A stretch of 42,533 nt of DNA, from contig JABANN010000287.1 of the NCBI GenBank assembly GCA_013115125.1, positions 1 through 42,533 of the forward strand, given 5' to 3'. Shown one piece after another: positions 4,800 to 42,464 of this stretch. The translations under genes were made by a program, and so were the position numbers. Position 1 is the first letter of the stretch. The number at the start of each line of letters is the position of its first letter. Origin of the DNA: Perkinsus olseni. Lineage: Eukaryota. The notes beneath the pieces are model-generated. The model saw only the letters and a program-made list of their open reading frames with translations. It was not told the origin of the DNA and did no database searches.

Positions 4800-4839
<40 letters not shown>

Positions 4840-6398: not shown

Positions 6399-9300
6399 AT
6401 GTCTAACATCTACGTAGCGGAGCCCCCCACCAAGGGCAAGGTGGTACTGCACACCACCCATGGGCCGATATCGATAGCGTTGTGGCCGAAGGAGTGTCCG
6501 AAGACTACCAGGAACTTTGTGCAGTTGGTAAGACACCTAGGGAAGGTCGCTTTTACTGTTGTACTTTCTTTATGATTGGCTGCCACAGGGAAGGGGTTGG
6601 TGGCGGCCCGTGGCTGCGATGACTTGCTCTTGGTATATTGGTATGTTCTAAGTCGAGGAAGAACATAGTTGAAGCGAAAAAAAAGAAAAACGCAACGCGT
6701 CCGGCCAGTGGCTTCTCTGAACACTTATCCTGGAACGTCTCAGGACAGTAGCGAATCCTCAACCCGAGAGTGCTCCGTACGCGCAATTTAAGTTGAACGA
6801 ACTTGTTTCGTATCTTCCCTGCATGAGTATTCCGTGAGTTGGTGGAAAGTTGGTACGCAATTACCAACTCGGCGTCCTGTTCGAAGGAAAATAGATTTCC
6901 TGTATATTGAATTCTCTTCTACTCAAGAGGCGAGCTGGTCAGTTATCGAGGGTAAGGGCGACCGTCGACACTCGGCTTCGCAATAGACTTCTGCCGGGTA
7001 GGATGCAGTACCGCCTGCAGGCTTCTCCCTGTCTCAACTTATAGGGGTTGTTATAGAGTCGGTCTGTTCTCTGATGTCGATCGGTTGCGTCTCCGGCCGA
7101 CTCGCCGTAAATTGGAAGAGTCCTCACTTCTGCTGGTCCTTCCGGTCATTGGGCACGCGGCTGCGACGGGGTCTTCCGGTCAAGCGCTAGGCGGAGCGAA
7201 GCTCTTCTTTGCAGGCCCTTGAGGACTACTACAACGGCACAGTCTTCCACCGCATCATCAAGGACTTCCTCATACAAGGCGGAGATCGGACGAACACCGG
7301 TTTGGGCTGCGATTCCATCTATGGCGAGCCTTACCCGAACGAATTCCATTCACGTTTAAAGTGAGATATTTCGACTGCCGGGTGGGTCGTATCATTCGGT
7401 GCTCTTGCAGGTTCCGATATCGTGGTCTGGTGGGCGTCGCGAGCGCTGGAGTGGCTGAGAAGGGCGGGGCGTCGACCAACGGCTCACAGTTCTTCATAAC
7501 AATGGGAAGAGATGATAGCTTTAATAATAAGTAGGTATCTTAGGTTGAAGCTGGGCATTGACGGAATCCCTGGTGGTAGGTATACGTTGTTTGGTAAGGT
7601 TGTTGATGATACGGTATATAATCTTGATAGGATATCGCAGGCTAATGTCGATACCAACGACTTCCCGACTGACGACCCGCCGCCGCATATCATCCGAGCT
7701 GAAGTGGTAGTACTGGAGCGATAATAGTATCTTCTGGAATGTATCGAGCACGGATGAACCTCGGATACCGATTGGACTTTGTACGGGGCCGAACTGCACA
7801 GTAGTCGTTGTGTGGTGAGCGATAGGTAGCTCATTACTTGCCCAGCAATACCACACCATCCACACTTCCTGGTGAAGCTGTCGAACGAAGAACGTCCCTC
7901 TGAGGTTCTCGCTGGGGAGCGACGAATATGTTAGGTCGTGGAAATGATTATCGCGGCTAGCGTACGGCTTTGTAGCCACTTCGATGTATCTGCCAAGGAG
8001 AGTTTGTGTTCGCCCTCCTTCGACCCACCACCGACCCAACCGGAGGTCCCCATTTGCTTTCGATTAGGTTGAGAATCCCTTTACGGATATCATTCCGAGG
8101 GACATCTATCGGCAAGTGGTGGATCATGCTGAAGAAGAGAGGGAAAATAGGAGAAAGGAGAAGATAGAGGTGTCCAACAAGAAGGGACTGCTGAGCTTCG
8201 AGGATGAAGACAGCAGCAGTAGCGAAAGCGAAGACGACGAGGATGGTAAGCGGAAGGTCGTGGGTTCAATTCCTAGGTCTGGCATCTTATATTTTGTCCC
8301 ACTGCAGGAAGCGAGAAACGTATAGCTGTTAAAGTAAGGAGTGCTCACGATGGTGGAGATGCCTCGCTGTTGGCCGAAACGGCTAAGTCGGGCGATGCGG
8401 CCGACGCGGTCCAGAAGGGAAGCTCTTCGAAAGCGGCAGCAAGGCGAGCTAAGATGCTTCAGAAGGTGGTGAGGATGTCCTTGGCGTGGGGGCTCGGTAC
8501 TCGAGGACAATAAATTTCGATCTCATTCACTGGTCTTCTGTGAGCTGTTTTTTGCAATTTTGGGACTGGCTGATGTGCAAGGAATTTTTTGTAGCGGCCC
8601 GATAATTTCGCTCAACCCCCGCTACTAGCGGGGGTTGAGCGAAATTATCGGCGCGAAGATTCTCGGAGAGATTCAGTGGAAGTTGTTCGCTCTCCGCTCA
8701 GTCTCGAGGCGTCCAAGATCTCGATGATGGCGATGAGGAGTCGGAGGGCTCCGAGTATGGCGATCGGGAACGAGCTGAGAAACTTGGTAATAGGCGGACG
8801 AGAGGTATCTTTTTGGGATGCGTTTCTTAGGTATCCTTCCAAGTGAGGCTAAGGCTATGCGGGAGAGTGAGCTTGAACGACAACGGCAGATCGAAAAGAT
8901 GCGCCAAAAGATTCGGGTAGGGGCTCCACGACTTTATTTGTACCCTATCGAATTCTCAACTCCAAAACCGTGTTGGGCGATGAGGATCGAAAATTATTCG
9001 GATTCTCTTGATAAAAATGCACGCTCCTCATGCAGCCTTGTGACGTGCTTGTCATTGAAAGCGGGTTCGGGTTTCTGGTTGAAGTGTTTTGCTTTTCAGC
9101 AAGTCAACCGAGTCGAGGATACGTCTAAGAAGGAGACGAAGGGGCCGATGGGGATAGCTGATCGCACGAATAAGTAATGATCGAGGGAGTACTTGGAGCC
9201 TATCAGCAGCACTCAGTAGCCATACTCAATTACAGCCTTAACCTTCACTGGTGCTCACCTTCCTGGGAGGGGGAAGGGTAGGAGACACATAAGAGTCTTG

Positions 9301-10537
9301 TGATGTGATAGACACATGGGCTGTCCGGAAGGTTGGCATAGCTCCCCTGTGATCCGGTGACCTTGGTGACTTCCGTGCTGGCGCGTTCTGGCTAGATTGA
9401 TTGATTGGTGGAACCAGTGGCGGGCTCTACTACTCTAGTCGACTAATTTCAGCTATACTCTTACCTTAGCGAGAGCAGCATAGTCAGAGCGGTGGTGTTG
9501 GGCATAGCTATACAGATGGAAGTGTCGTGATGGGGTTTCGTGCTTTGAAGGTACAAACGACGGGAGAAGCGTGGCAAGAAGGCTTATCAAGAGCTGGATG
9601 TATTCATGCACGAGGAAGCGTCTAAGGCGCATGAGAGAGAAGAAGGTTGGACCATGGCCAAGACGCTGATTGACGCTTTTTGTTCCAGAAGGGCCTGTGG
9701 TGGTGAATGGTGGAAGCTCGACCTCGGCTCGGGCGGCTGCTGAGGATACCGAGATAACGGCGGAGCCGGGCACTCTGGCTGAGACCATGCAGGTAGTAGT
9801 TCTGATGGTGCCAGGATTGGGTTGGTTGTCGAGAGCGTCGAAGCTTGAAACTCGTCTCCCGTTGTATGATGACGCGCGCCGAAACTCAGAAGTCAGGGCT
9901 CAACTTGTGCGTGTGTCCGATTAACCCCTGTGCCTGGCCGCAGTCTCCGCAAGACTCCAATGAGATGTTATGAGCCACAACCATGGCGAGATGCTCTCTC
10001 TGTTGTCAGTTTGCATTTGGGGAGGATACAGGCGCGCTGGGTGCAGATGGTGATGCCTTCGGCGGCGCGGACTGGCTTCATGGCCGAGATACGTCGGCGC
10101 ACAGCAAAGGATTGAAGTTTGCTATAGACAGCACGAGAGCGTAATAATCTATGCTATTTTGCTTATATGATGGTTTGAGGGTATCTTGAACTTGAGCGTG
10201 AATGATACGAAATAGGTCGTATGGACAACCGCGGTCGTTTGATGGAAATAACAGCAAGAGCGGGATAATGTCTGTCTCTGCTTAGCTTATGTGATGGTCT
10301 GTGGGTATCTTGACCTTGAGCGTGAATGATACGAAATAGGTCGGTTGTGTCGTGTACTTTGGTCCTTGTAGGTATCAACTAGACGAGGAGCGTGCACAGA
10401 AAGTGCTGGAGGTGTACGACCCGCTAGATCCCAATGCAGGGCCGCCAAAGGAACGTCGAGAAGAGAACAGACCGAAGAGGCCTCGACGAGACGATGATGA
10501 TGAACGGAGCGATCGTCATCATAGGCATCATCGTTAA
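6399..10537 (+). CDS. CWC27: Spliceosome-associated cyclophilin-domain protein, CWC27/SDCCAG10 type, multi-exon
   Basis: Exon 1 (6399-6527) [43 protein letters not shown]. Exon 2 (7215-7360) [24 protein letters not shown]...EFHSRLK. Then [10 protein letters not shown]...[34 protein letters not shown] and GLLSFEDED. Charged tail includes DWLHG...LKF and VYDP. Last exon 10372-10537. Confidence 0.92.
8599..8651. repeat. Perfect palindrome, 26-bp arms, 1-nt centre (intronic, CWC27)
   Basis: CCGATAATTTCGCTCAACCCCCGCTA-C-TAGCGGGGGTTGAGCGAAATTATCGG. Confidence 0.97.
10161..10343. repeat. 59-bp direct repeat, two copies, in the last CWC27 intron
   Basis: 10161-10219 and 10285-10343 differ at 4 positions. 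Confidence 0.93.
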
Positions 10538-10750
10538 CGTGGTTTCTAAGTGGAGATGGGCTGCGTTGCATCAATCCAGCAGGGTTTGTCGGGGTGGCTT
10601 GAAGTGGTGTCACCGGGAAGATGCCCATCTTTTGGGTTCTTGGGAAGGTAGTGTGGTTGGCATGGCGATATGGTCGAGGTCCTCTCAGTCGGTCGGCCGA
10701 TAATCATAGTGATGATAGCGGGTAGTTCCCACTGGGGTTCTTCAGTTGTG

Positions 10751-12727
10751 ATGATGCCTTGCAATCTGGAGGAGGATCTCCCGATCTTCGTGTATTATGG
10801 TGATACTGAAGAGCTATCTTTGTTGGGTGGGGCTGAAGACGCTGGAGGGATCGACAAGATCGTCGTTGATGAATTCAGAGTGGGTAGAGTCCGGTGAAAA
10901 ATAGTTGCCCAGAGTTGATGTAAATCTTTTTTGCTGTGATTATTTTTCTATAGTAGCCGAGCAGCGGGATCGGAAAGAGCGCGAAGTCCTTCTCTCACCT
11001 GAGGTGGCATACGTTGATATTATACGGGAACTCTACTTGTCGTTGGTCTATTGATGCTTGTGCCAACTCGTGGCAATAGTAGCACCACTGCTGGTTGTTT
11101 TGCCCACCATAGTGCTGTGGCTGCTGCAGTTACGGGGCTTCATCATAGTTCGGCATGCGTATCCTCGCATGCAGCAGAGGGTGCTGCAGGAGGTTGCCGC
11201 ATTCTTCGCACTGGACGACGAGGAGAAGGCGGCCATTGCGGGTGGCGATGGTATGCGGAAGATCAAAGGGCGTCCTGTTGGGTGATCGGTCTTGGGCTCA
11301 TTGGCTTCCTTATGGGCAGCATATTCTGCAGCGTTAACGCTAATGCTTATCTACGATCGAAGATGCGCATGGACTGGGCTGGTCTTTCAGTCCGACTGGT
11401 GGATTCCATTGACTTTCGAAATGGTAGAAGGAATTTTTCTCTTGGTATTATGCTGACGTTTTACGATAATAGTATCTAGTGATGTTGGCCGTCTCGATCT
11501 CGGACGGAAGTCCTGGCTTTTCTCATCTCATGCAGCTCTAACTAGGGTGCTCAACTTCGCTGTGGTCACAGCGTCATCAGCAGCAGCTCGACCTTTGTCG
11601 CAGATAGTGAGCTTGGACGACTGTGTGAAGCCCCTCAGGTACTCTCGTCGTGGATCTTCCGAGTTCGTCGATCTCCACCTCGCGCACAGCAAGGGCGGCA
11701 GAGGGCTCGTACCGTCGGGTTTCGATTCGACTCGTCTGAGAGTCCCTGTACTGGGCCATGTGTCAAGTGCTGCTGGAATCGCAAGGGCACTATGCCGCTG
11801 TATCGAGAGATACTTGACGGGAAGTGATGGTAGTGCCTCGGGCGTGCGCTTTGGTTTCGATTTCACAGCGAAATTAGCAATATTCTGGTCCTTCATAGGT
11901 TCTACGGCTCTAGAAAGCTGTGTTGATTTCCTGTCGACGGAGCCTTCAGAAGAGGGCGTGTCCAATTCGACCGTACGGTTTTGCCACTACAGCGCCGGGG
12001 CTGGAGGTTTCGAGCCGCATACGGACACCAGCTTCTTCACGGTGCGGGAAGATACGTTTTGATGCCACTGCTGTCCGTCAATGAATTCATCCTCAAGGCT
12101 GTTGTCTTACTCTTCACGCAGGGGTTGCCGCGGACATGGTGACGGCTTCACAGACGCGCTCTCTTTGTAAGCGTTGATGGCTCTTGGTCACCCAGTTTTC
12201 AGGTGATCGCTTCCGCTGGTCGGAGCAAGGCGTCGTCGCTGGAGATTCTGAGCCCTGGAGGGAACGAGTGGCGAGCGATTGATAGGCTTATTGCCGATGA
12301 CTCGTCGGTTGTTGTCTTTCCTGGCGACTATATGGCCATCATCTCGAAGGAAGCCGTTCCTGCAGCAGTAGGTTGGGGGCTCGGTTCGGGAGCTGTGGAT
12401 CGGGCTATCTTCTGTGGAAGGTGCATCGGAGCACGGCAGGGTCATCGCGCGAGGATCGTATCTCGGTGCCGATTCTGTTCAGAACCAGGAAGGGAGCGTA
12501 TTGGCCTGGGAGAATGAAGGGGATGCTGGATTGCGATGGTGAGTTTAGCCCTGTCTCCAACGCTGGACCAGCCGGATGGCTCTTCGGTAGAACCCCTGCC
12601 GATGGATGACTTGGAAGCTTTCTGCTCTGTTAAGCGAAAGCGGCAGGCGGCGGAACACCGGGACGAAGGAGATAATTGGATACTCAGCACGCGGGATGTT
12701 GGGGCGTCCAGCATGATGACGAGTTAA
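10751..12727 (+). CDS. 2-oxoglutarate/Fe(II)-dependent dioxygenase (IPNS/DIOX-like), multi-exon
   Basis: N-terminal LRGFIIVRHAYP...EVAAFFALDDEEK. Core TVRFCHY...FEPHTDTSFFT (HxD), LEILSPGGNEWRAI...VVVFPGDYMAIIS, VHR (distal His) and DRISVP (RxS). The start codon is approximate. Confidence 0.85.
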
Positions 12728-12960
12728 CGTCTTGTTTCCGCTGGCAGTGGTCTCTTGTGTCTGAAAGCTCTATTAATTCGTGGAGAAAATTCCGCGTTGT
12801 ATATGTCCCAGTGGTTGCGCCTCGCTGACCAGATCAACGATCGTTTCCTCTGTACGGGCTGCAGCAGGTGGTGCCCGGATTCTGCTTCGTGTTTTTTGCT
12901 CTCCGAGCTTGTTTGGCTTCCTGTACATCCCAACGACTAAGCTCAGTGTGAGCAGCTTTT

Positions 12961-14314
12961 ATGAGTGCATTTGCCCGTTGTTTCTTCCAACCGAATACCC
13001 TTCGGCGATTTGCCGGTGTCGCAGGAGCCTCGCTGGTGGCGGGAGGGATGGCGAGAAACAGTTTACGGCCGAACCGGTGCTGGGCCGAGGAGATGTCGGC
13101 CGGGCAGAGATTAATGGACCCGCCGAAACGCGAGCAGCGGAATTTGTCCCAGGTGAGTATCTGACAAGCTTCTGGGTCGACTGCGAGGCCGAGCACCGTC
13201 GCAACAGTATATCGCATACGAACTGAGGATTTCGCTCGATGTGTGACAGTCTCGTCGATCGACCCGGACTAGGTCTGGCACATCGTTGACTCGTCTGGCT
13301 TGAGTTCGACATACGTGCGGGCCAGGTTATACGGCCCGTGTGACTTACGGGGAATTTACTTACCGCGGTTGCTCGCTTGGTGGGTATTTGGCTTGCTGCG
13401 AGGTGATGCGCCGTTGCGTCAGGTCATGGCCGATACCAACCTTGGGGAGGTGGCGGAGCCTCTCAGCTTCGGCATGATATCAGGATTCTGTAGCGGATTC
13501 TTTCTTAAGAAAGTGGGCAATGGGGTGACACTTGATGGGATCTCTCCTTACGGAGTTCGTGGTGCGGCTCCGGAGCTGTCAGTTCCTGAAACTCCTCGCG
13601 GGCCTCGCGTACTCTACGGCATATCCTGCTAGCCATAATCGGCGCCGTGTCACCATTGGAGCGCGATACGTTTGATGGTGCTGTTATTCGTGCAGGTTGG
13701 CAAGGCGGCAGCAGTGACTTTCGGGGTCGTGTTTGTGACGTTCCAAGCTGCAGCTCAGGCAGGGTATGTCAATGTGAACTGGGACGCGGTAGGTGTGCAT
13801 CTGTGAAGGACGAGAGAATGAGCGTCTCTACTCGACGATTGTGCAGTATATAGAATCTATATTATAGATCTGGGATGTCGACCTTGTGCATGTCAGTAAC
13901 CGTATGGCAGGATTCGCTTCTTGCTTGATGAAGTGAGTGTAGGTACAGCGTGATGTGATGAAGGGTTTAGACATGGATGGTGACGGAGAAGTGACTGAGA
14001 TGGATGCGCGAGAAGTAAGAGAAAGGATTAAAGTTGATGCTGGGCCGGCGATGGTGCCCATAAATCGTACAAGTGTAACGTGAAGGGCCACGTATAGCGT
14101 GAACGCTACTGCTGACTCATTCAACTTGTATCGTGTGTGACTGGGCGTTTCACCTTCTTAGTGGGTGTAACTCCACCGCTCACTCAGCCTAGCGGGTTAC
14201 GATGGTGGCTTGAGTCAGGCGGTAGTGCGAGCGGTTAACTACCTCACGGAGAACACAGGGATCGCTGCCGGAAGCTTTATGGCTGGTTTCGTCTTGGGCG
14301 TCAGGAAGGGATGA
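12961..14314 (+). CDS. FUN14-family (FUNDC-like) mitochondrial membrane protein, 5 exons
   Basis: Presequence-like MSAFARCFFQPNTLRRF. Then LSFGMISGFCSGFFLKK|VGKAAAVTFGVVFVTFQAAAQAGYVNVNWDA|VQRDVMKGLDMDGDGEVTEMDARE|AVVRAVNYLTENTGIAAGSFMAGFVLGVRKG*, with TGA at 14312-14314. Confidence 0.9.
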
Positions 14315-14936
14315 ACGTTGTAGCATTGCCAATTTAGTTTTTCTGCATCTCTTGTTTGCTGACAGTGGGTGGTTGCGTTGTTCAATGTGGGATATTGAGC
14401 GTGGATCTTCTAGGTAAATCGTACTCGAGTTCTTTCCTCTGAAAGCCCCTTCGTTGCAAGTTGTAGCTTACAATCTATCATGTGCTGAGGCGGCGTGCTG
14501 TCGTACATTTGCTGCTGCCTAGACTTTCCAGCAAACAGCATGACAGAGGTGACCACAGTCAGTCGTGGTAGGCTGCCAAGGTAGCGCCGTCGGGAGACGT
14601 ACAGGTGCGGGTGCCGACCTTCCCTGACGCGTTGTGAAATTTGAGGAAGACCGGAGTCGTGAATATCGACAGGAACACGGTGAGTAGAGCCTGCCGGTGA
14701 ATGACAGGCTGATGGAGCCGTTAAAATTTTGTCTAGTATGATAGGTGCTTACTGCGCTCACTAAGCATAGTTTGTGCAGCTGTTCGAATCAGCAGGTTTT
14801 GCAAAGTTTGGCGAAATCATTTCGTCGAAATGTATCTCAAAATTTGCCCACCGCCCTCATAAGCCACCGACGGTGAGCGCAGCATGGCTGCTGGGGGGCG
14901 AAACACAATGTTCGTGGGCGCAGGCATTCCTCCATC

Positions 14937-17900
14937 ATGGATAGCAAGATCTGCAATACAAGTGGGGCCTTAGTCGCTGCTCCTTGTGGCTCGCCGGAGA
15001 ATAGTTGGTGATCCGTGAATACTAGGGCCTCCTAGGTATGATAAACACATTGATTAGCTGGGCGGTCATCAATGATTTTCATACTTGACGGTGAAGCCTT
15101 GGCCAGGGATGTCAGCACCGACGGCTTCATCTCACAGCGAGATTCTCACTGACTCAAATGAGATGGTATTATTAATGAGGTGAGATGTGGTCTTGTGCGT
15201 GGGTGCGATCGAAGAGTAGCCTACTCTGAGTAGGAGGTCGCCTCTGAGAGGTGTACTATGGGACCTACTCATTAGGACATGTGCATTAGGACTCCTAAAT
15301 TAGGAGTCCTAATGCACATTGCTGACCTTATTTTCGAAGCTATTTGTGAAGTCAAAGGAGATGGCATCCCGCGGGAGAGTTGTTGTGGCGAGGCGTGAGG
15401 CGGCTGCATAACAATGAAGAAGATTCCTAATCTGTTCAATAAACCGGACAATCCTTGCTCTCTGGCGTACATGTAATTTGTTCGGGGCGTGACCGCTGCG
15501 GGAAACCTTCTGATACTCGGGGCTGCTCAACGCGGAGTCAACGAGCAAGTTGCGATTCATCAGAGTATCGTATCGCTGAGCGGAGTAACTCACTCCGCGC
15601 CAGTTCCAACTTCGCGATCTTCTCCCCATGATCAAGGATTATGCGTTATGTGGAAGGCCTTCGCCGCACCATTGACGAATCGTCAAGAAACGATGCCGGA
15701 TGGTTGGCAGCGGTTATCGGCTTTAGGTGAGGGAGGGAATTTCCCTTAGGGAAAAAGCTTTCTATGTCTTTTTGATTAGCGCACTTGCTATGACCCTGAT
15801 CCCAGGGTGTATTCTCTTAATCAGCGGATGAGGCAGATCGGAGGGTCGGTCCTTTATTTCGTCGGTAGTACCGGCTCGGTACCAAGGTCAAGAAACCTTG
15901 CGCTGGGGTGAATTGGAACGTGGAAAATCAGGACTCTTCAAGCAAGAGGGCCTGTCGGCTTCCCAATATCTTGCATATATGTTACCCCATTCGGTAATAG
16001 AGAACCAACCGAAACCACCTGCGGGGACCATAAGTTATGGTCTATAACGGCAGACCGCAAAAAAACTACAACGGATATGATGACCGTAATGTGATTCGCC
16101 CATACCTCGATTCACTTATTCACCCTCGTTGAGTCCTCAGCCCTCTCAGCTAGTCGGGCTATAGATATGGCAAAACTGCTGTCGCGTTCGCACAATGTAA
16201 AACGCACCGCTGTTGTGTGTGTTTTGCTAGTGTCGGACGGTAATCATGAGTTCAAGTTTCCCGGGTAGAAAAATGTTCTCTTGTCGGAAAATACCGGAAA
16301 CTTGAGCTTCCATAATCTGCTTGAAACTGATACTCGGTTATTGAGTCGAAGTAGGTACAGTGCGAGGAGATGAAAGTAGAGATGTGCGTGGATGGAAAAT
16401 GCTGCATGAAGAGAATGTGGCTTCGAATCTGCCACCAGTCGCTGGAGATGCCGAATCTACCATGGGCCGCGTTAATTGTCTTCGTAAGGATGAAGGCTCG
16501 TCGGGGAATAGATGAGGGACTAGATTGTACTGTTGCATTGCAGGGTGCCAATGCTCAATGTAGATAATCACTTTCACTTTGAGCTAGACTGCAGTGCTGT
16601 GTTTACGACGGAAAAAGTTTTGCAGCCGATGTAGCTGCATATCGTCGGATCTTTCCTTCGGCCCTGGCTCCGACTCTGCGATATTCCTGCTACTTCCGTA
16701 TAACGTTAAGATTCTGGCGTTGTTCGCTTACAAGGCGCCTGCCTATTCCCGAAGTCGGAACATCGAAGCCGGGGAGGTGGACTTTGAAGGACCACTGACC
16801 GCAGCCGGTGCCGCACCAGAAGGGTTCCGAGGAGACAGAAGTGCGCGTTGGCCAATTCGGCCACTACTCCCAGTGTTGCTTCTCAGCGAGGAGATATACG
16901 AGGATACCTAGTATCAGTGCGTTGTACAAAAGCAGCAATGGGCGCCAAATTCCCGGAATATGCCCTACTCGCTGGGGTTCCAGTATAACAGCGCTTGAAC
17001 CTTTGGGACTATCTTGGGCTGCGATTCTGGCTGTCGTCGAGCACGTGGAGCACGGACTCGCGGTTACGTGAGCTGAACGTATTATTTCAAATCTTTGATC
17101 ATTGGTTTGTCAAGCATTGGAGCTCCTCGCTCGTCTGAAACCTTCTGATGCCCGAGGCTTCTCAACGCGAAGTCAATGAGCAGGTTGCGGCCATTCAGCG
17201 CATCGTGTCGCTGAGAGGAGTTAGTACATATGGAACATTCCAGCTCATCCAGCTATATGTACTCACCATCCCTGCTACGACAAGCCGTGTTTGGCAATAG
17301 GTTGGAGTCGACGGTATTGACACCCTCATTTTCTGTGAGGATTGCGCTGGTGCTTTTTCCAACACTCTTCAACCCGAGTAGCGGGTACCAAGCGCATCAC
17401 TATGACATCGCATGCGCGACCATGTGGTTGTTACCGAGCAGATAATTATGCCGCGGTGCCCCTGCCTCAACTCACTCCTTCGTTTGCGTTCAGTCCTTAG
17501 CTTTGAGTTAGTCCTACTGAAGATAGGGCGAACTGATCTCCGAGAACAGTTCTCACGTCTCGACCACTGCTGTTTGTGGTCTACTAGCTTCTAATGGCAA
17601 TCACGAGCTAGAAATTACTGGAATAACAAAAAATCTAGATTTCCGAGTCCACAACTGATTTCTATCCGAAAAATGTCGGAAATCTGAGCCTTAACAATCT
17701 TTTCGAAAGTGACACTTGTGATTGATCGAAAATAGGTACGGCGCGAGGAGGCGAGATGTATGGATGGACAGGCAGAACATCTGCCGTAGATCCTACCTGA
17801 GACGAACGTGCCTTCGAACTTGCCACCATCTGCTGGAGATGCTGGCTCTACGGAAGGGCGCGTCCATCTGATGATCGGATATCATATGATGGACTCCATC

Positions 17901-19635: not shown

Positions 19636-19954
19636 CCTCAGCTCCGTACCCATGCAGAGACGAACGTGAGCCTCGGGGCCTCGGGTAGCTTCGCCTGGCC
19701 GATCGTAGCTGATGCCGCTGAAAAGCGTGCCATGACATGGTCTTATTAACATCAAGTCTTCTCAAGTTTCGAGACCCTTTTTTCTTTCACCAAGCGACAT
19801 TGTTTTCATCTCCATCAATATTCTTCAGCATATCTTTGTCCTTATTTCCTCTAATAGTATCTGGTGGTAACTTGTCCGGCAGATTTTGTATTTTCACCTG
19901 AACCATATTGAGCTAATCTCGCCAATAGAAATTACTCCATTTCGGGTCTCTGTA

Positions 19955-24618: not shown

Positions 24619-24745
24619 AATCACGTGGTCAGCTCGTATCTTCAATCGATGACGATTTTAATACTTCACTAACACCCGAGACATCACCAAAGAACAGCGT
24701 AAGACATCGAAGTTTGCTCTCATCATGATTAACAACACATCCACT

Positions 24746-27060: not shown

Positions 27061-27160
27061 TGTGTGTGAGTTTGAAGTGCAACGCCAAGAAGCGGCTTAG
27101 TCAGATTAGCACCGATGTATCTTGTTTCAAGAGGGATGAGTTTTGGCAAGTTTATTGATC
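27061..27160 (+). mobile_element. Dispersed short repeat (SINE-like), copy 1
   Basis: GTGTGTGAGTTTGAAGTGCAACGCC...CGGCTTAGTCAGATTAGCACCGATGTATCTTGTTTCAAGAGGGATGAGTT is homologous to the reverse complements of 28567-28627, 29303-29377 and 40698-40792. Confidence 0.75.
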
Positions 27161-27223
27161 ACAGGAAGTAGCGCTAAGGTAGAGGGCCGGGCAAACCTAA
27201 GATACTTCCTTTTCTCCCGGCAG

Positions 27224-27800
27224 GATCCGCTTCCACAACTGGGGAGGCTGTGCACGACCACGAAACACTAACTCTTCCCACAGTGTGTCGACCACAAGCT
27301 TCATCTCCGAGACCCGAAAGGTCCATATCCTAGAACTTGACTCCCCTCATACCGAGGCTAACACTCTCGATGGCAACCTTTACAGGTAGTCTAAAAAATT
27401 CCCTCGAATTCGGTCGCTTAACGCAGCTCTTGCTTCGCTTTTGCTACAGCCATAGCTGTACATCGACTCACGCATATTGTTATTTGCCCCATCCATGAAG
27501 GGTACTGCCTTCAAACTTGGAAGGTATATGCGCCGCAGCATATAAGCGTACCGACTCAGGCCTCGTGATGCGAGATGATCTCATGGAAGGACAAAACGTT
27601 GCCCTTCCAAGACGTGTCGAGTTCGACGAGTTCGGGTGGGTCAAGTGTGTCACTGGAACAGAGTTTGGGTTCTACGATATTCGAGACTGAATGGAATGAG
27701 TTACAGGGAATCCTCAAATCCTGCCGAGGCAGCGAGGGGAGTCTCACTTTCGTTCTTGCTACTTGTATTCTCCGTGAGTTGATCGAGATCCCAAACCCCG
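27224..27800 (+). CDS. Possible spliced gene fragment, unknown product
   Basis: In-phase GT-AG joins give LDSPHTEANTLDGNLYS|SCFAFATAIAVHRLTHIVICPIHEGYCLQTWK|MISWKDKTLPFQDV...TEWNELQGILKSC. No start codon or family was recognised. Confidence 0.3.
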
Positions 27801-27945
27801 TAGACTATGGGCCGCAGCTGGAGGCTTCCCGAGATCCACGACGTATGTTCCTATCAGCTACTGCGCCCGACAAGCAGTTGTGCGCTACAATTGAACTGAG
27901 CACAACAAAATTCAGCGGTACACCAGCGCAGGGAGACGGAAAACT

Positions 27946-31311: not shown

Positions 31312-33022
31312 TCAGATGATAACCGGCACCTAACCGGATATAGTATATCCGTGCCGTGAGAATATGTCCACGGACTTCTTCTCCTTTATTGAAGTCTTCG
31401 AGTTGATGAGTTTTCTCCCCTGTTACAACTTTCGACACAACAGATGGGATATACTCTGAAACCCTCTTTCCATGCGCAGCAATAGCTTTCTTGAGTCCTG
31501 AAAAGTCCAACTCCGGACTCCGATGCCGCGATTGGTAGCGCTTGAGCTCGATCGAATGCTGATTGGATGGTGGTTGATCGGAGGAGTGCACTGGCTGAGA
31601 ACACGAGGAGCAATAAATCTGCGTGAATCACCGACGCTTCGTCGATAGAGCTGGGCAACCGTACTGGATTTGAGGGAAGTACGGTACGGAGTACGTTTCA
31701 AACTGTGAACCTAGTACGGGTACGGAGAACTAGTACGTATTGAATATATTAAATAACGCATACGTGTATTAAATTACGTTGTACTTCAAGTACGGCGTGC
31801 TAGTACGGTACTTGGGAACCGCTGAGACGGATAGTACGGGTACGGAGCCGTACTCGTACTACCCGCACCGTACTCCGTACTAGACCGTACCCGTACTGCC
31901 GCCCACCTCTATTCGTCGATGATTCATCGAAGGGCGCCAACTCAGCATCTCCAATCAAGCGACATACATCCCACGCACAGCGGACCAAGAAATGGAGGAA
32001 AGGCAACCCCTTACTCGCACAGAGACCGCTCGAAATTGTCTGGGGCGGCCCGGATCATCAACAACCCGGAAGGAGACGCGTGCACCTAAGGTAAGAGATT
32101 GCAACATCCCAGTGCAGTCAGACGAGAGAACTTCCATTCGAACGATTGAACGATCTGAGGAGTCTCGATAAAGCAGACTCAAATGGAGCGAATCCATGAC
32201 GCATCGTCAAATCCCCAAGCTTCACAGGTACCCAAGCGTACAGTCCGTCCCAACATGAAAGCCAAGTCGAAAGCGGCGCAGGGGTTGTCATCACCTTCAA
32301 GACGATAAATTCGCAGCGGGAGATATCAACAGCTCACCAGCCTCAAGAGTCCTCGATACTCCGGTAGTAGAGGTCGGCCAATCGACATCATTCCGATGCA
32401 CGAAGACATCCCGCAGCCCCTGTCCGCCAGGCAGGAGACTCTCAGGAGAGATGAAGCCGTAGCCTTGGTAACGATCATATCTGAGGTCGACGCATGAGAT
32501 CCGCGGGTCACGCGAGGGAGCACTGCGGCTCGGGCTGGCAATTAGGACAGCGGCGTCATACTAGGTGGACGACCGAGGGACTCACTGGGATACATAACCG
32601 ATGAACCGTGACTCTGTTCGCTGCGATGTGCTAGAGAGTCCTCGAGTCGCAAGGAGAAGTCGGAGCTTCGAAGTATTGGTTCGCGCTACCGCGACGAGTG
32701 CTGCCATATTAATAGTGACTGCAAACTGGCGGGACCACAACAGTAACATCCGATCTATTGGAGCCCTTCATTCTGGGTCCAAATAAAAGAGAGGTAGCCG
32801 TAATCGGGATGGCAGAGCCCGGAGCGAACGAGGTGCCACTAGACCTATATGGGAACTGCTCGATTTGATGACCCGATTCGGAGGCATCTTGGTACCCGTG
32901 AAGCCTTTAGCTGAGAGAACTTCAGCTCGTACAATCTTGGCCTCGAATCGTGGTACGCCTTCGATGCCGATATCCCGAAGAAAAATAGCAGAGCGTACAG
33001 ACTCTACCTCAGCACGAGCCAT
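31312..33022 (-). CDS. Uncharacterised multi-exon protein with a cold-shock/OB-fold-like segment and a CxxC motif
   Basis: Start MARAEVESVRSAIFLRDIGIEG. Contains LQSLTLGARVSFRVVDDPGRPRQFRAVSVR|MLSWRPSMNHRRIE|IYCSSCSQPVHSSDQ...ELDFSGLKKAIAAHGK. Stop at 31312 if a last intron is used, otherwise 31280. Confidence 0.55.
31659..31898. repeat. GTACGG-rich insertion flanked by the 8-bp direct repeat CCGTACTG
   Basis: CCGTACTG at 31659-31666 and 31891-31898. The interior carries many GTACG(G)/CCGTAC units in both orientations. Confidence 0.85.
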
Positions 33023-34701: not shown

Positions 34702-34825
34702 TGAAAGATAACTGAGATCAGAAGCAGCGTACGCCACTGTGACTAAACTCAAACCTATTATACTGTATAATTTATACAGTTGGCTTATACACTGTGTTCT
34801 GATGAAGGGAATGCAGCACGCAGAC

Positions 34826-34907
34826 ATGAGGCCACTATGCCACATACAGAGATGACTCATCTCAGATGAGGCCACTATGCCACGTTTGGACACGAGGCCA
34901 CTATGCC
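34826..34907. repeat. Three copies of GAGGCCACTATGCC upstream of the intronless dioxygenase
   Basis: Copies at 34828, 34868 and 34894. The palindrome GAGATGA-C-TCATCTC (34849-34863) lies between the first two. Confidence 0.9.
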
Positions 34908-36272: not shown

Positions 36273-37700
36273 CTAGTTTACCCTGGCCCAACTCGCCTCA
36301 GCTATCGCCTGTTTGATTGCGACGTCGGGTCGAAGGAGCCCATACGACATCTCGTCCCCTGCCTTCGTCCTGACTCGGCCCTCAGTAGAGTTCAATAGTA
36401 TCCTCTCGATTTCCTGCGGCGTGAAGTTCTTGAAACTTTTCATCAATACCACTATGCCTGCAGCAGCTGCTGCGGCAGCCGATGAGCCCCAGCTCTTGCC
36501 ATACACCCAGTGATCCCCGTCATACTTTCTCGTCGGAACCACCACATCCGTCGAGGGCACTCCAAAGCTGGCAAGTTTGGAGGTGGCAGTCGTGAGGATA
36601 ACGGGTTCAGTCGCCACCGTCGCAGCGACACAGAGGACCCCAGGTAAACTATTTGCTAGAGAGCATGGAAGCCTCAGTTCGTCCAAGCTATTAGTATCAT
36701 CGGAATTGGCGGTAGGGGTCAGAACCACGATACCCTTGGCCACAGCCCTATTGAGTACAGCCTTATACAAGAGTGCCGTCTCCTGATCAAACTCACCGCC
36801 ACACGCAAATAATATAACCTCAGTGGCCTCTGAGTTCTGAGCTGCATCCCACGCCCGCAAAATCGCGGCATAGTCGGGATCTGATCGTCCCTGTGACATT
36901 CGTATTGGGAAAATTCTCACTTTATCAGCGATGCCAGCCATCCCGATCCCGTTGTTAATGTTCGCCCCGAGGATGCCGGCCATCGCCGTACCATGGCCAT
37001 GATGATCTTCCACAGACTTCTTCCATGACCAAGAAGCATCGAAGCCCTCCAGTACCTTCCCCTCGAATTCAGGATGCCCCGGTGTTATACCGCTATCCAA
37101 GATAGCCACGACAACATCTCTCCGAGGGGGACCTGATTGTCTTACTGCCCCCCAGGCTTCCCTAATCCTCAGCGCCTCGAATAATATTTCCTGGTCTATA
37201 AAGTACGGATCATTCGGAGGATATTTCAACGCATCCTGATACGTCTCGCGAGTCGAACCACGTGACGCGATTGAGGCCCCCGCTCCAGCATGCCCCGTTT
37301 CGAATGAAGCCAACTGCGAGCCATTCGCGCATGCCGCTACCTCGTAGCTCCCATCAGATGCAATCGAGCGGACGAAGCGGCATATGTCCACGTGGGAGAC
37401 CGGGCAACCCTCACTCCCAGCGTGAACGACTTGCACGTCGATAGCTACCAAATCTTCTATCACGGTCGACTTCTTCGCCCCTCCGAAGCATTTCGATAAC
37501 CGATCCCATTCGCCGTCCAATATTCCCTTTTCCTTAATGAGGTCACGGTGGAGGTGGAAAGCCTCCTCAATACCGACTCGTTTGCCGCGAGAATCTCGTA
37601 TCATAACCACCGCTGTGTCGTGCTGTACTGAGAGTACAGCCAGCAGGAACAGAATAATCAGCACTGCCGGTAAACGAAGGAGAGAGAACTCGTGTAGCAC
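36273..37700 (-). CDS. Subtilisin-like serine protease (S8), intronless, copy B; GTG at the homologous start
   Basis: Hydrophobic N-terminus, YPPNDP, VAILDSG (Asp), HGHGTAMAG (His), TANS (oxyanion Asn) and WGSSAAAAAAAG (Ser). 1428 bp, collinear with copy A. Confidence 0.9.
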   Translation of the reverse strand: MLHEFSLLRLPAVLIILFLLAVLSVQHDTAVVMIRDSRGKRVGIEEAFHLHRDLIKEKGILDGEWDRLSKCFGGAKKSTVIEDLVAIDVQVVHAGSEGCPVSHVDICRFVRSIASDGSYEVAACANGSQLASFETGHAGAGASIASRGSTRETYQDALKYPPNDPYFIDQEILFEALRIREAWGAVRQSGPPRRDVVVAILDSGITPGHPEFEGKVLEGFDASWSWKKSVEDHHGHGTAMAGILGANINNGIGMAGIADKVRIFPIRMSQGRSDPDYAAILRAWDAAQNSEATEVILFACGGEFDQETALLYKAVLNRAVAKGIVVLTPTANSDDTNSLDELRLPCSLANSLPGVLCVAATVATEPVILTTATSKLASFGVPSTDVVVPTRKYDGDHWVYGKSWGSSAAAAAAAGIVVLMKSFKNFTPQEIERILLNSTEGRVRTKAGDEMSYGLLRPDVAIKQAIAEASWARVN

Positions 37701-37920
37701 TGCCAGACTGCTATTTCATAAGGGCACAGCTGAGTCGAACAAGATGGAACACAATTGCGGCTTAACCCGTCCGATACTGCACACACCATCGAGCTCGGTC
37801 CCTTGAGAACGCACTTCTGAACTTGCACGGGACGACTCACCATCACCAGATATAACATGGAAAACACAGCCACAGCGTACAGAAGGCCATACATCACATA
37901 AGCGCGATGCCAACTAAAAA

Positions 37921-39348
37921 CTAGGCTATCTGAGACCACATTGCCTCAGCTATCGCCTGTTTGATTGCGACGTCGGGTCGAAGGAGCCCATACGACATCT
38001 CGTCCCCGGCCTTCGTCCTGACTCGGCCCTCAGTAGAATTCAACAGTATCCTCTCAATTTTCATCGGCGTGAAGTTCTTAAAACTTTTCATCAACACCAC
38101 TATTCCCGCGGCAGCTGCTGCAGCAACCGATGACCCTTGGCCCTTCGCGTAGCGCCAAACATCCCCGTCGCGTATTGGCGTCGGGTATGTGACGTTGGTG
38201 CCAGGCATGCCGAGACTAGCAAGCTTCGTAGCATCACCCAAGGCAGTGAGGGGATCGCTTGTCACTGTCGCTGCGATGCAAAGGACTCCCGATACTCCGT
38301 GGGCTAGAGCGCAGGGCAGCTCCACTTCCTCTGGGCCGTCGACATTGTCAGAATTAGGAGCAGCCGTGAGAACTAGAATTCCATTCTTCACGGCTTTCTC
38401 CAGTACAAGCTTGTAGAATATAGATCTGTCCTGGTCGAACCAGCCTCCAGCAGAATAGAGTATAATGTCGGTATCCGCGAACATAAGGGCTGCCTCCCAT
38501 GCACGCACCACCCTCTCGAACGCGGCTTCCGTTCCCTTCTCTGACATCCTTATCGGTCGGACCAGAACCTTATCCGCGATGCCAGCGATTCCGAACCCAT
38601 TGTTAATATTGGAGGCAATGATACCGGCCATCGCCGTACCGTGGCCAAAGTGATCCACTACCGACTTCCTCCAGGTACCAGAAGCATCGTGTCCCTCCAG
38701 TACCTTCCCCTCGAATTCAGGATGCCCCGGTGTTATACCGCTATCCAAGATAGCTACGACAACGTCTTTCCGAGGGAGACCCGATCGTCTCACAGCTTTC
38801 CAAGTTTGCCGAATTCCCAGAGCTCTGAAGTAATCTCTTTGCTCTGAGAATAACGGGTCATTCGGAGGGTATTTTAGTACACTACAATACGCTCTCAAGC
38901 TAGCCTCAGCTCCGACCATCGAGGCATCTGCCCCCGCTGAGCTCATTCTGAAGGAACTAGGCTCCAACCCGTCCGTGCATGCAGCTACCGTGTAGTTCAA
39001 ATCGGGCTTGAGGGACTTTACGAAGTTGCAAATCCCCTCATGAGATGTCGGACACTCCAAACTGCCAGCGTGGACAATTTGAATGCCGGTTGTCTCCAAC
39101 TTCTCTATCACAGCCGACTCCTCGTCGCATCGTAAGCACTTCGACAATCGAATTGATTCCCCGTCCGACGATCTCTTTTCCCCCATTACCTCTCGATGCT
39201 TGCGGAAAGCATCTTCTATGCCGACTCGTTCGCCGCGAGAATCTCGTATCATAACCACCGCTGTGTCGTGCTGTACTGAGAGTACAGCCAGTAGGAGTAC
39301 AATAATCAGCACTGCCGGTAAACGTAGGAAGGAGGACTCGCGTGGCAT
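37921..39348 (-). CDS. Subtilisin-like serine protease (S8), intronless, copy A
   Basis: ATG at 39348 (MPRESSFLRLPAVLIIVLLLAVLS), VAILDSG, FGHGTAMAG, APNS and QGSSVAAAAAAG. 1428 bp, offset 1648 bp from copy B. Confidence 0.93.
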   Translation of the reverse strand: MPRESSFLRLPAVLIIVLLLAVLSVQHDTAVVMIRDSRGERVGIEDAFRKHREVMGEKRSSDGESIRLSKCLRCDEESAVIEKLETTGIQIVHAGSLECPTSHEGICNFVKSLKPDLNYTVAACTDGLEPSSFRMSSAGADASMVGAEASLRAYCSVLKYPPNDPLFSEQRDYFRALGIRQTWKAVRRSGLPRKDVVVAILDSGITPGHPEFEGKVLEGHDASGTWRKSVVDHFGHGTAMAGIIASNINNGFGIAGIADKVLVRPIRMSEKGTEAAFERVVRAWEAALMFADTDIILYSAGGWFDQDRSIFYKLVLEKAVKNGILVLTAAPNSDNVDGPEEVELPCALAHGVSGVLCIAATVTSDPLTALGDATKLASLGMPGTNVTYPTPIRDGDVWRYAKGQGSSVAAAAAAGIVVLMKSFKNFTPMKIERILLNSTEGRVRTKAGDEMSYGLLRPDVAIKQAIAEAMWSQIA

Positions 39349-40231
39349 TCTGAGGGCATTCAAAACATAAAAGCCCCGCTGAAATGGATAAGCAGAAACC
39401 CGACCGCGGGTTGCTCCAGCTTATACGAAGTGTATCATCACCTGCGAATTACGATTATTCCAGCGATCGACAGTTTCGTCCCTCGGCCTCGCGATGCTCA
39501 GGATAATCAAAATGTATTCATCGATCAGAACTGTTACCCAGGGCAACGAGATCCCCTGCTGAAGATGCTTCCTTCAAACTGTTGAGTAGAGACGGAATGA
39601 TTCACGTCTGAAATGGTAGATCCTGGCAAGTTACAAGTGTTCCTTGGAGATTGTACTTCTCCCTTGGAGGTTAGGAATTAACCATCGATGACTACAAACT
39701 GTGCAGAATGTCCCTGCGGCAGTGCAGCACAACCGCTAATAGCCGTCGTGATCGCTGGAGTAGATAGGGCGAGCACGGGTTTTCGTGCGCCACGTGCGTA
39801 GACCATGTGCGGACCCCCTTTGGTTCATAGACAATAGCTCTTCTGCTGGCTAGGATGACGAGGATCCCGTACGGCGTACGCCCGTCGAACACAACTCTTT
39901 TTATACATCCATTTCATCGTCTTTACCAACGCATACTGCGTCCTGCACGGCAGGAACGCAAGCGGGGCGAACAACTTGGCGCACGCCCCAGAGCAGGCAA
40001 AAATTTTCGCGCACGCCCGAAATTCCTGCTTTATACGATTGACTCGGGTCGAATTGACACGCCCTTCGCGAGCCGCTCGTCAGTCTTGCCAGCGGGTTCC
40101 GAACAAGGATCGTTTGGACGCAAACTTTTGAGGCGATCCGAGAATCTCGGGGAGAGACTTTGTATAGCACGACTGTGCCAGAAGTACCACTAGGTCAGCG
40201 GCAAGAACATCAATGAGGATCCTATCCCGGG

Positions 40232-40278
40232 GTAGGGATGTTCTTCATTGCAGCCGCTGCAATGAAGAACATCCCTAC
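40232..40278. repeat. Perfect palindrome, 23-bp arms, 1-nt centre
   Basis: GTAGGGATGTTCTTCATTGCAGC-C-GCTGCAATGAAGAACATCCCTAC. Confidence 0.97.
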
Positions 40279-40697
40279 GCTGCGATGCAGCGTGTCACCC
40301 GGGCGCAACTGTCATAAATGAATAACGGCTTGGGAATGGCATTGATGAGCCTTGAAACTGAGAGTAGCTTTTCGGTGAATTATCATGCTAGACAGTTGAA
40401 GACGTGCTGAACAATGATAAACGACTTGGTCTGGGACTTTGTGTGAGACCTAGCCTATGTCATCTAGGTCACGGTGACGTGTCGGCCATGATATGGGGTC
40501 AATGCCTCGGCCAGCCTGTCGAACATCGAGGAGGCGTCAGTCCATGACTCGAAAAGTATATGCATCTGAAAGGACGAAGACAAGACTGTTCTCATGCTTC
40601 TAACGTTCGACCGAGCTGAGACGCCAGTTCAAGACGCTGTGTGACAACATCTCATTCCACGACGTATGAATGTTGTTTTACTGATAACCCACATGAG

Positions 40698-40792
40698 ATA
40701 AACTCTCCTTAACTTATCCCTCTTGAAACAATGTACATCGGTGCTAATTTGACTTAGCCGGTTCTCGGCGTCGGGCTTGAACTCCTACACAC
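40698..40792 (-). mobile_element. Dispersed short repeat (SINE-like), copy 4, with a Pol III B-box-like motif
   Basis: The minus strand reads GTGTGTAGGAGTTCAAGCCCGACGCCGAGAACCGGCTAAGTCAAATTAGCACCGATGTACATTGTTTCAAGAGGGATAAGTT. GTTCAAGCC fits GTTCRANNC. Confidence 0.7.
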
Positions 40793-42377
40793 GAGATTTT
40801 GCCCCTCGAGCGGATGCCCAATCAGCAGGCAATAGCCCGATGAAAGCTTCCTTCTCACACTCTACGAGTACCTGTGTGGGTGCTACCAGCGACAATGAAC
40901 TCGAAAACCGAGACTCGGAGCCCTGAAGGAGGTCGTTTTTCGAAATCGCCAAATAGCACGTAAGTCAGTAAGTACACAGAGCAATTGGCGGGTAACTTAC
41001 CCGGGGTAAGCCTACAGTGATCCGAAGTTATTTCCCAGAGAGACGGATATGTGTTCATTAAACCACTATTGAACATCTTGGAATCTTATTTCTGAGAGCG
41101 AGTGGGCAGGCATGAGTGACGCTGATAACAGTGCTTAGACGGCCGCCCTAGCACTAAGTGGCGGTCCTCACCTCCTGTAAACCCTCTGAGTCAAGACTCC
41201 TGTCAGCCGCTCGCTTAGTGCACTCCAGCTTCGCCAGTTCCTCGACTTCCGGCGAACCTTGCTGATGATGCTCGCGAACGTATGACCCCTGTGAAAAACC
41301 AAGAGTTCTTGTTCAAGGTCTCACACAAGGCGGCATTGGAGAGAACGGTGACCACTTTCGGGACCAAAGCCTGCTTAGCGTCGCTAAGTTAGTGAGAGGC
41401 CGCCCCAACTGCAGTAAGCCGAGTAAAATCGACAAGCATGCCTGGCCATGAAGTGAAGGCGATAACCAGGCCTACCGTCGGCTCTTGAATGGCTCCCGTC
41501 CTCCCTGGAAAAATGAACTGCGAGTTGAACGATACTATCAGAGCAAAAAGGGTGTCTGAGAATCTTTCCGCGGAAACTTTCGCGGAAAGTTTCCAAGGGA
41601 AATTTCCTAAATTTTCCGGGCGCCAGATTTTTTTGGAAAGTTTCCTGAAGGGACTTTTTGAAAGTAAGGGAATTTCAACGCAGGAGATCTGGCTCATCAT
41701 CCTGCGCAGCTCCGTGAAGCGTGAGATAGGTTCCTCAGACTCTGCATGTCACGTGACAAGACATGTAAAGTGGGAGGAACATAGCTATCCGTTTGATCTG
41801 GTCTGAACATGGGAGCTGGTGGATTCTCCACAATCCACAACCACGATCTAACGACATATGATATGTCACCTATCGCAAATGTAGAAATTTGCATTCCCGT
41901 GGGGCACTTTTCCGCCCAAACCAGAATGTTCACTAGTTTGCAACCCTCGTAGAAGCATTACGGAGTGTCTGCTCTGAAAGACTGAAAAATTTCTTTTCGC
42001 AAGACCTCTGAATACCCAGAGTCCCAGGCTTCGTTCCTACTACTCCAAACGGAGCCTTCGGCCCCGGGTTCCTATCGGTGTTCGCGAGAGGCTCTCACCG
42101 ACAGCCGAGAAAGCCTTGGACCTAGCTGGGAGCATCCGAAACGGCATAGATACCGTTTTTCGCAAATTTCAGAAACTTTCGGAAATTTCTGGAAAAATTC
42201 CGGGAAAGATTCTTCGGGAACTTTCCGCGATTTCGGGAGTACTTTTCTCACACCTTCGGATTACCTTTTTAAAACTGAGGGAAAAACCGCGAACGCAGTT
42301 CGCGAGAATTCGCAAAATCTAGAATACCACTAGGCTTCACAGGGGACTTCATTCTCTTCGTTTACTATGACTTTAAG

Positions 42378-42432
42378 AGGCTCCACAGGCGGGATTTTTG
42401 TTGAATCAACAAAAATCCCGCCTGTGGAGCCT
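42378..42432. repeat. Perfect palindrome, 27-bp arms, 1-nt centre
   Basis: AGGCTCCACAGGCGGGATTTTTGTTGA-A-TCAACAAAAATCCCGCCTGTGGAGCCT. Confidence 0.97.
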
Positions 42433-42464
42433 TGCCGATCGACGGCTACTAACCATAGTTAAAC

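Follow-up and report, generated by a model that had tools for sequence, protein, structure and literature searches.

Odd-centred palindromes and 22-nt scars in a Perkinsus olseni contig as probable hAT-type excision footprints

What could leave long perfect palindromes that share no sequence and are all centred on a single unpaired base? This question is raised by contig JABANN010000287.1 of Perkinsus olseni (assembly GCA_013115125.1). The whole stretch that was analysed, 42,533 nucleotides (nt), is called the window here, and all counts refer to it. Perkinsus is an alveolate parasite of molluscs such as oysters and clams, and the perkinsids stand near the dinoflagellates and apicomplexans. 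Our analysis indicates, with a probability of about 0.8, that the palindromes and a set of 22-nt scars in the same window are excision footprints of a hAT-type cut-and-paste transposon.

The first-pass annotation of this DNA had listed five mismatch-free inverted repeats with a 1-nt spacer, and all five proved exact on re-reading (Table 1). Two further odd-centred perfect palindromes, which it had missed, are given in the same table. Inverted repeats were tallied by spacer and arm length and compared with 40 first-order Markov simulations. At spacer 1, the observed and expected numbers of perfect repeats were 60 and 10.85 for arms of at least 6 nt, 48 and 3.02 for at least 7, 16 and 0.80 for at least 8, and 5 and 0.00 for at least 15. 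At spacer 0 they were 13 and 9.85, 5 and 2.08, and 0 and 0.33 for arms of at least 6, 7 and 8 nt, respectively. The count by spacer that had been proposed as a check, run here within the window, shows an excess at spacer 1 that is window-wide, and the claimed absence of perfect even-centred palindromes of comparable length holds as well. When mismatches were tolerated (score of at least 9), nine odd-centred palindromes (0.35 expected) and one even-centred palindrome (0.25 expected) were found, the latter sitting within a transposon. The arm lengths at spacer 1 peak at 7 nt, with many centres paired exactly 7 nt apart, and most of the spacer-1 repeats of the window belong to the 22-nt motif described below.

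Ten public runs contain this DNA, and contigs of four of them (X3, X6, X7 and X9) were aligned to 8400-28399, the 20-kb stretch richest in palindromes. The palindromes at 40232-40278 and 42378-42432 fall outside it, and the isolate comparison covers three of the five long ones. The samples and study of X3 and X6 differ from those of the possible source of the window. None of the runs is recorded as RNA; X7, which had been labelled so on a guess, is shown to be RNA by its spliced contigs. X9, which bears the same organism label, is a diverged relative. X3 and X6 each have one 15,644-nt contig over 8400-20455, which differs from the window by 0 and 2 letters, respectively, without gaps, and both match 22580-24373 exactly. 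Because these contigs carry long palindromes 1-3 at single-copy depth, these three of the five are neither assembly artefacts nor multi-copy sequences. The first-pass annotation had raised the general risk of an artefact of sequencing or assembly, for instance fold-back chimeras, and nothing else speaks for it. With the region carried by contigs of another study, and with clean empty sites in X9 (see below), we consider its probability negligible.

The palindromes of 31-55 bp look like tiny fold-back elements, and one of them is intronic and another lies in a transcribed stretch. Each could then be a small fold-back element, an element like a miniature inverted-repeat transposable element (MITE), or a functional hairpin (a protein-binding site or an RNA). 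We found this highly improbable. Comparison of the sequences bore out the statement that the palindromes share none, and their arms are copies of the adjoining unique flank. X3 and X6 depth over 8400-20405 is that of one single-copy contig, with small rises in three bins, none of which holds a long palindrome; therefore, no further copies exist at 80% likeness or more. Rfam gave no match in the window. The suggestion that a process rather than an element family is at work is thus supported by unique, single-copy palindromes and by the window-wide excess at spacer 1. That all five are intronic or intergenic could be upheld for one: 8599-8651 lies within a GT..AG intron at 8464-8699 defined by spliced X7 contigs, and it is the only one of the five that has been placed.

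Analysis of the short repeats revealed a 22-nt motif absent from the first-pass annotation. It consists of N1-N7, the reverse complement of N1-N8, and N2-N8; that is, an 8-bp word occurs twice with a full inverted copy between, and the two inner bases are complemented. In a scan of 42,512 start positions, with 14 pair constraints per motif, 12 perfect motifs were found, 23 with at most one mismatch and 30 with at most two, against 0.00, 0.00 and 0.10 expected. The same design for targets of 6, 7, 9, 10 or 11 bp gave no perfect and no one-mismatch case in the window. Direct 6-mer repeats 14 nt apart numbered 39, and both neighbouring bases were complemented in 16 of these, compared with 0-4 such cases at each of the other repeat distances from 8 to 70; in six further distance-14 repeats one junction base was unchanged. 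A CAT/ATC-rich microsatellite at 4768-4869 accounts for the period-3 peaks in the table of direct-repeat spacings. The long palindromes are all perfect, and 18 of the 30 short motifs carry one or two mismatches. Six of the 11 single mismatches are at N1 or N2, beside the hairpin tip, and such tip-proximal mismatches may date from the formation of the scars. The long palindromes may be younger than the short scars, shorter-lived or homogenised. In X6, one of two contigs omits 12 nt within 24149-24164, inside the motif at 24144-24165, which may be a heterozygous or alternative repair allele. About 34 scar loci were counted in 42.5 kb, or about 0.8 per kb.

If one arm of a long palindrome is the original flank ending in the 8-bp target, a second target copy is expected just past the other arm. 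An exact 6-nt core of this second copy was sought beside the outer edge and was found at four of the five long palindromes. The null rate from 200,000 random placements was 0.0116 per palindrome, and simple arithmetic from this rate gives P of about 9e-8 for four of five by chance. Two target copies of 8 bp thus flank the scar both in the 22-nt motifs and in four of the five long palindromes. In footprint 1, a 25-nt palindromic extension (8600-8624) is copied from the right flank, the centre c (8625) is the complement of N1, and the right target copy TAGCGGG (8626-8632) is followed by the right flank. In footprint 2, the centre a (15299) is N1 unchanged, and TTAGGAG (15300-15306) is followed by the right flank, in which a 7+1+7 palindrome centred on 15306 pre-existed. 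The second copy in footprint 3 is GATGGA (17910-17915). Footprint 4 has in addition a 6-nt right extension, GCTGCG (40279-40284, 5/6 as predicted), then a (40285), the complement of N1, and TGCAGCG (40286-40292). The centre is therefore the complement of the element-adjoining target base in footprints 1 and 4, and footprint 2 departs from this. Footprints 1, 2 and 3 are all present in X3 and X6 contigs, and footprint 2 is also present in an unspliced X7 contig (15244-16383).

Template switching during replication or repair, or polymerase snap-back synthesis, could copy a short piece of the opposite strand and return without any transposon. Template-switch mutations do produce de novo inverted copies of neighbouring sequence and perfect hairpins (Loytynoja & Goldman 2017, PMC5453318; 10.1101/2021.04.15.439925; both in the sections available to us). 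In formal terms the motif, being direct-inverted-direct, reads as a forward-back-forward copy, and no scar site was seen with a resident element. However, switching should vary in length and spacer, and the sections of PMC5453318 available to us give it no fixed length, target duplication or single-base centre rule. The scars are of fixed length, with 8-bp targets only and none of 7 or 9 bp, and a second copy of the 8-bp target accompanies the long palindromes. The 1-nt offset at both junctions and the mostly complemented junction base are likewise left unexplained by switching. We consider this explanation very unlikely. Snap-back end-joining, which had been named as a candidate beside hairpin excision, is not needed and would leave the fixed 8 bp unexplained.

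Empty sites were found in X9 and in paralogs within the window. Between 19004 and 19076, X9 has 29 letters against 71 in the window. Its site at 19021-19042 is empty, 14 nt shorter and with one target copy, and after removal of 14 nt of the motif 24 of the 29 letters match the window in a hand alignment. At 19050-19080, exactly the 23 extra nt are missing and one target copy is left. X9 also joins 24029 to 24071 with four letters between, so that one copy of each flank replaces a complex double palindrome; this gives partial support. Similarly, the paralog 22150-22260 of 26260-26385 has a single GGCGGGAG (22194-22201) where the 22-nt motif stands at 26304-26325. In the paralog 16330-16620 of the palindrome 3 region, about 55 nt are absent at the palindrome site. 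These empty sites show that the palindromic state is derived by insertion.

Near palindromes 1-3, the X9 pieces end at 17862 or have 95 gap letters over 15117-16245. X9 has about twice the contig letters of X3 and X6 (90 versus 42 million). Over 8400-28399 it often has two contigs for the same place, each of which differs from the window by several per cent, and X9 may therefore represent two diverged haplotypes or a polyploid relative. The local segmental duplications (22098-22609/26227-26773, 15502-15586/17137-17221 and 16399-16472/17790-17863) are old, 72-81% identical, and lie in the gene-poor middle of the window; they serve as internal outgroups for the scars.

The four second target copies, the fixed 8-bp geometry of about 30 scars, the empty sites and a hAT-like MITE (see below) all support hAT-type hairpin excision, which the first-pass annotation had listed as a candidate. 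The sequence shows a constant target length of 8 bp, tip bases that are complemented, second copies of the target and sites in an empty state; the enzymes, the element family and the order of events are inferred, as follows. An element would insert and duplicate 8 bp of its target (N1-N8). At excision, the transposase would nick one strand 1 nt inside the flank, and the freed 3′-OH of the flank would attack the opposite strand, turning each flank into a hairpin with a single tip base from its target copy. A host nuclease would open the hairpins off the tip, leaving a palindromic single-stranded extension centred on the tip base. Because both flanks end in the same 8 bp, the extensions would be complementary over up to 8 nt. 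They would usually anneal, and trimming, filling and ligation would then give the 22-nt product, a net gain of 14 bp; annealing would yield this product regardless of the exact nick positions. Where one hairpin was opened at the tip and the other 15-27 nt away, no annealing would be possible. Filling-in and joining of the long extension would then produce a long perfect palindrome that has a 1-nt centre and, just past one arm, the other copy of the target. Opening at the tip agrees with footprints 1 and 2, in which a single complemented base is all that the short side has.

The closest known case is that of Ac/Ds. Its footprints have been described in plants, Saccharomyces cerevisiae and Candida albicans (Coen et al. 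1986, for the hairpin model; Weil & Kunze 2000; Yu et al. 2004; Lazarow et al. 2012; as cited in PMC5873905). The part of PMC5873905 available to us reports palindromic insertions centred on the complement of the transposon-adjoining base, arms of up to 20 nt in S. cerevisiae, with arms of at least 3 nt in 66 of 140 footprints, and joints accompanied by microhomologies. The Perkinsus scars share with what is described there the 8-bp duplication, the palindromic P-nucleotides on a complemented base, the long arms and the microhomology between opened hairpin ends. Unlike these footprints, they are natural and fixed, they occur in an alveolate at the density given above, and a single product of stereotyped form dominates, in which all 8 nt of the target are present in inverted orientation. 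Their arms reach 25-27 nt, and the classical short hAT footprint (duplicated target with only the two inner bases changed) was not found in the window, with no case at repeat distance 8. The mechanism as such is familiar from experiments with Ac/Ds. The novelty lies in the host, in the density of the scars and in the stereotyped product, and the supplementary footprint tables for Ac/Ds may already show the 22-nt product. Among the papers that searches for Perkinsus with palindromes, hAT elements or transposases listed, the titles and abstract openings contain no description of such scars, and none of those listed for hAT is a paper on hAT in Perkinsus.

A 1-nt nick offset is reportedly part of Hermes/hobo-type chemistry, as Zhou et al. 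are said to have found in 2004. The Perkinsus scars resemble these systems in the 8-bp staggered target joining and in a flank hairpin with one odd tip base, and this tip base would be the reason for the odd centre of the Perkinsus palindromes. For Hermes, 8-bp duplications and a target preference nTnnnnAn are described (PMC10368747, in the sections available). In contrast, the preference is only weakly visible in the Perkinsus targets, and the scanned open reading frames (ORFs) of the window include no transposase.

RAG hairpins are made without an offset and give even-centred additions, usually of 1-4 nt, without an 8-bp duplication, and Transib duplicates 5 bp. Both are similar to the scars in having a flank hairpin, off-centre opening and palindromic additions. 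Neither fits the window in its symmetry or its target length: spacer 0 is not enriched, and the 5-bp design gave one perfect match against 0.30 expected. The introner or inverted-repeat intron elements of Amoebophrya, an alveolate relative, also form hairpins from inverted repeats in introns (PMC7789003, as far as available). They are repeated families with terminal repeats of 8-20 nt and direct repeats of 3-5 nt at the intron borders, according to the same part of that source, whereas the Perkinsus sequences are unique and built from the local flank.

A candidate for the type of source element was identified in the window. The 266-bp element in Table 1, flanked by a perfect 8-bp duplication, was the sole hit of a window scan for 8-bp direct repeats enclosing inverted ends. 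Its terminal inverted repeats match at 11 of 14 positions and begin TAGAG, many GTACGG/CCGTAC repeats lie subterminally, and it has no coding capacity. The hAT end consensus is YARNG. The duplication, the short terminal repeats with a hAT-like start and the subterminal repeats are those of a hAT-type MITE. No other copy of it was found in the window, and a loose window search for its 11-nt terminus returned 28 matches where 18.3 were expected, which is uninformative.

It is also conceivable that another superfamily with flank hairpins and long target duplications, for example a Mutator-like element (MULE), excised here with the same downstream repair. The hAT assignment is based on the target length of 8 bp, the single central nucleotide and one MITE, with no transposase in the window ORFs. 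All 30 motifs fit 8 bp exactly and none fits 9 bp. The TAGAG ends of the resident MITE match the hAT consensus. They do not match the GAG/GGG ends of MULEs in Table 1 of PMC4423477, a source available in part. Muta1 makes duplications of 8-9 bp and forms hairpins on flanking DNA, but its excision in yeast is more than 90% precise (PMC5499845, in the sections available to us). A non-hAT source is therefore unlikely, and among the alternatives it is the least improbable.

Several observations weigh against excision by a hAT-type element. No hAT transposase was found among the 28 window ORFs, in which the Pfam matches were confined to a 2OG-Fe(II) oxygenase and two S8 subtilases. The window holds a single resident MITE for its 34 or so scars, and in the contigs compared over 8400-28399 no allele was seen with an element occupying a scar site. 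The Hermes preference is weak in the inferred targets, of which 12 of 28 have T at position 2 and 11 have A at position 7, where base frequencies are about 0.25. The second copy of footprint 3 has one wrong base (the final target base is t, and g was predicted), and palindrome 5 lacks an exact 6-mer core, its second copy agreeing at six of eight positions. The arm-11 palindrome centred on 24070 fails the core test and requires a complex history. The complex scar at 24030-24081 to which it belongs fits poorly, and more than one event or a template jump is needed for it. The palindromes starting at 40232 and 42378 are outside the isolate comparison. Finally, we found no precedent for the footprint density in the sources as far as they were available; a comparison of two rice genomes reports 94 putative excisions (PMC4423477, in the part available).

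Table 1. Palindromes, putative excision footprints and the hAT-like MITE of the window.
Feature	Positions	Target	Match	Details
Long palindrome 1	8599-8651		no mismatch	arms 26, centre c
Long palindrome 2	15279-15319		no mismatch	arms 20, centre a
Long palindrome 3	17879-17909		no mismatch	arms 15, centre c
Long palindrome 4	40232-40278		no mismatch	arms 23, centre c
Long palindrome 5	42378-42432		no mismatch	arms 27, centre a (42405)
Extra odd-centred palindrome	24059-24081		perfect	arm 11
Extra odd-centred palindrome	17895-17915		perfect	arm 10; overlaps long palindrome 3
Putative long footprint 1	8592-8651	GTAGCGGG (inferred)		GTAGCGG (8592-8598), complemented last base C (8599)
Putative long footprint 2	15271-15319	ATTAGGAG		ATTAGGA (15271-15277), C (15278), 20-nt extension (15279-15298)
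Putative long footprint 3	17879-17916			left flank + TGATGGA (17887-17893), centre c (17894), 14-15-nt extension (17895-17909)
Putative long footprint 4	40232-40292	TTGCAGCG		left flank + TTGCAGC (40248-40254), centre c (40255), 23-nt left extension (40256-40278)
Long palindrome 5 with approximate second copy	42378-42439		6/8	T+TGCCGAT (42432-42439); predicted T+TGTTGAT
Putative 22-nt footprint	13848-13869	ATATAGAT	14/14	within intron 13788-13941
Putative 22-nt footprint	15213-15234	AGAGTAGG	14/14	
Putative 22-nt footprint	23075-23096	CTGTCACT	14/14	3-nt overlap with end of footprint 23056-23077
Putative 22-nt footprint	23359-23380	TTTGAGAT	14/14	
Putative 22-nt footprint	23384-23405	GATGTTGC	14/14	
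Putative 22-nt footprint	23869-23890	GGCAGGTA	14/14	
Putative 22-nt footprint	26304-26325	GGCGGGAG	14/14	
Putative 22-nt footprint	29234-29255	GCTAGACC	14/14	
Putative 22-nt footprint	34757-34778	ATTATACA	14/14	
Putative 22-nt footprint	34849-34870	GAGATGAG	14/14	
Putative 22-nt footprint	40989-41010	CGGGTAAG	14/14	
Putative 22-nt footprint	19021-19042	AGAACTGA	13/14	
Putative 22-nt footprint	14811-14832		13/14	mismatch at tip base N1
Putative 22-nt footprint	15733-15754		13/14	mismatch at N1
Putative 22-nt footprint	16027-16048		13/14	
Putative 22-nt footprint	23019-23040		13/14	mismatch at N2
Putative 22-nt footprint	23056-23077		13/14	mismatch at N2
Putative 22-nt footprint	24144-24165		13/14	mismatch at N2
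Putative 22-nt footprint	25112-25133		13/14	
Putative 22-nt footprint	41374-41395		13/14	
Putative 22-nt footprint	41853-41874		13/14	
Putative 22-nt footprint	469-490		12/14	
Putative 22-nt footprint	15129-15150		12/14	
Putative 22-nt footprint	15861-15882		12/14	
Putative 22-nt footprint	17534-17555		12/14	
Putative 22-nt footprint	19364-19385		12/14	
Putative 22-nt footprint	23784-23805		12/14	
Putative 22-nt footprint	25814-25835		12/14	
Putative footprint, both extensions kept unannealed	19050-19080	AGTGGATC		AGTGGAT g ATCCAC + CCGATCCAC c GCGGATC
Complex scar	24030-24081			ACTTCAA g TTGAAGT, 14 nt, then AATTACTTGTT g AACAAGTAATT
hAT-like MITE	31638-31919	TTCGTCGA		element 31646-31911, 266 bp; perfect 8-bp duplication (31638-31645, 31912-31919)

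Other repeats were also found in the window. One family, whose end reads GTGTGTGTGAGTTTGAAG..., is represented by 27060-27490, by inverted ends at 28601-28627 and 29351-29377, and by a related piece at 40698-40781. Its summed depth is about 15-30 times that of single-copy DNA in X3, X6 and X9. This GTGTGTGTGAG... family was considered as the source of the scars and rejected: its ends have no matching 8-bp duplication, so the family is not linked to them. At 27214, other copies of it in X3, X6 and X7 have a 14-nt tandem duplication, which is direct rather than inverted and so is not a footprint of the kind described here. In every DNA run, a 64-nt segment at 20407-20470 has a depth about 25-fold that of single-copy sequence, with many contigs ending on both sides; it probably represents the tip of an element with a high copy number.

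Long ORFs are few in the window. Spliced X7 contigs define two + strand genes rich in introns, 8463-9687 and 11638-14219. The splice joints of these contigs mark 13 GT..AG introns, 43-377 nt long, and the exons measure about 70-560 nt; the ORF pieces of these genes have no Pfam match. Two tandem intron-less S8 subtilase genes lie on the - strand (36276-37715 and 37924-39420), with about 62% protein identity to each other. They are part of a large Perkinsus-specific expansion with many relatives in P. olseni and P. chesapeaki, and the nearest named proteins, with 81% identity, are subtilisins of P. olseni, which places the DNA in Perkinsus and speaks against a fungal origin.

Work on excision footprints normally proceeds locus by locus or relies on engineered assays. 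The natural genome described here seems to have dozens of them per 40 kb, each recording its target, the hairpin side that was opened, the distance from the tip and the way of joining. A wider claim, which we hold tentatively and rate somewhat below an even chance, is that in this Perkinsus lineage hAT-type excision left about one scar for every 1.3 kb of non-coding DNA across the genome, in the tens of thousands, nearly all repaired by annealing of extensions and not by classical end joining. If this is true, 14-bp palindromic insertions would be a leading class of indels, and the genome would preserve a natural and dated record of how hairpins are repaired in an alveolate. In a bolder form of the claim, a domesticated, host-kept hAT-like nuclease would still be driving scar formation. 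For annotators, the scars are a caution that a perfect hairpin in such genomes need be neither a functional RNA nor a binding site. Should the same density apply to the whole genome, the scars would be a large, previously unrecognised source of palindromic insertions of at least 14 bp in introns and intergenic DNA, and would provide clean presence/absence markers to distinguish lineages. They would also give a direct read-out of double-strand-break and hairpin repair in perkinsids, whose repair pathways are poorly known.

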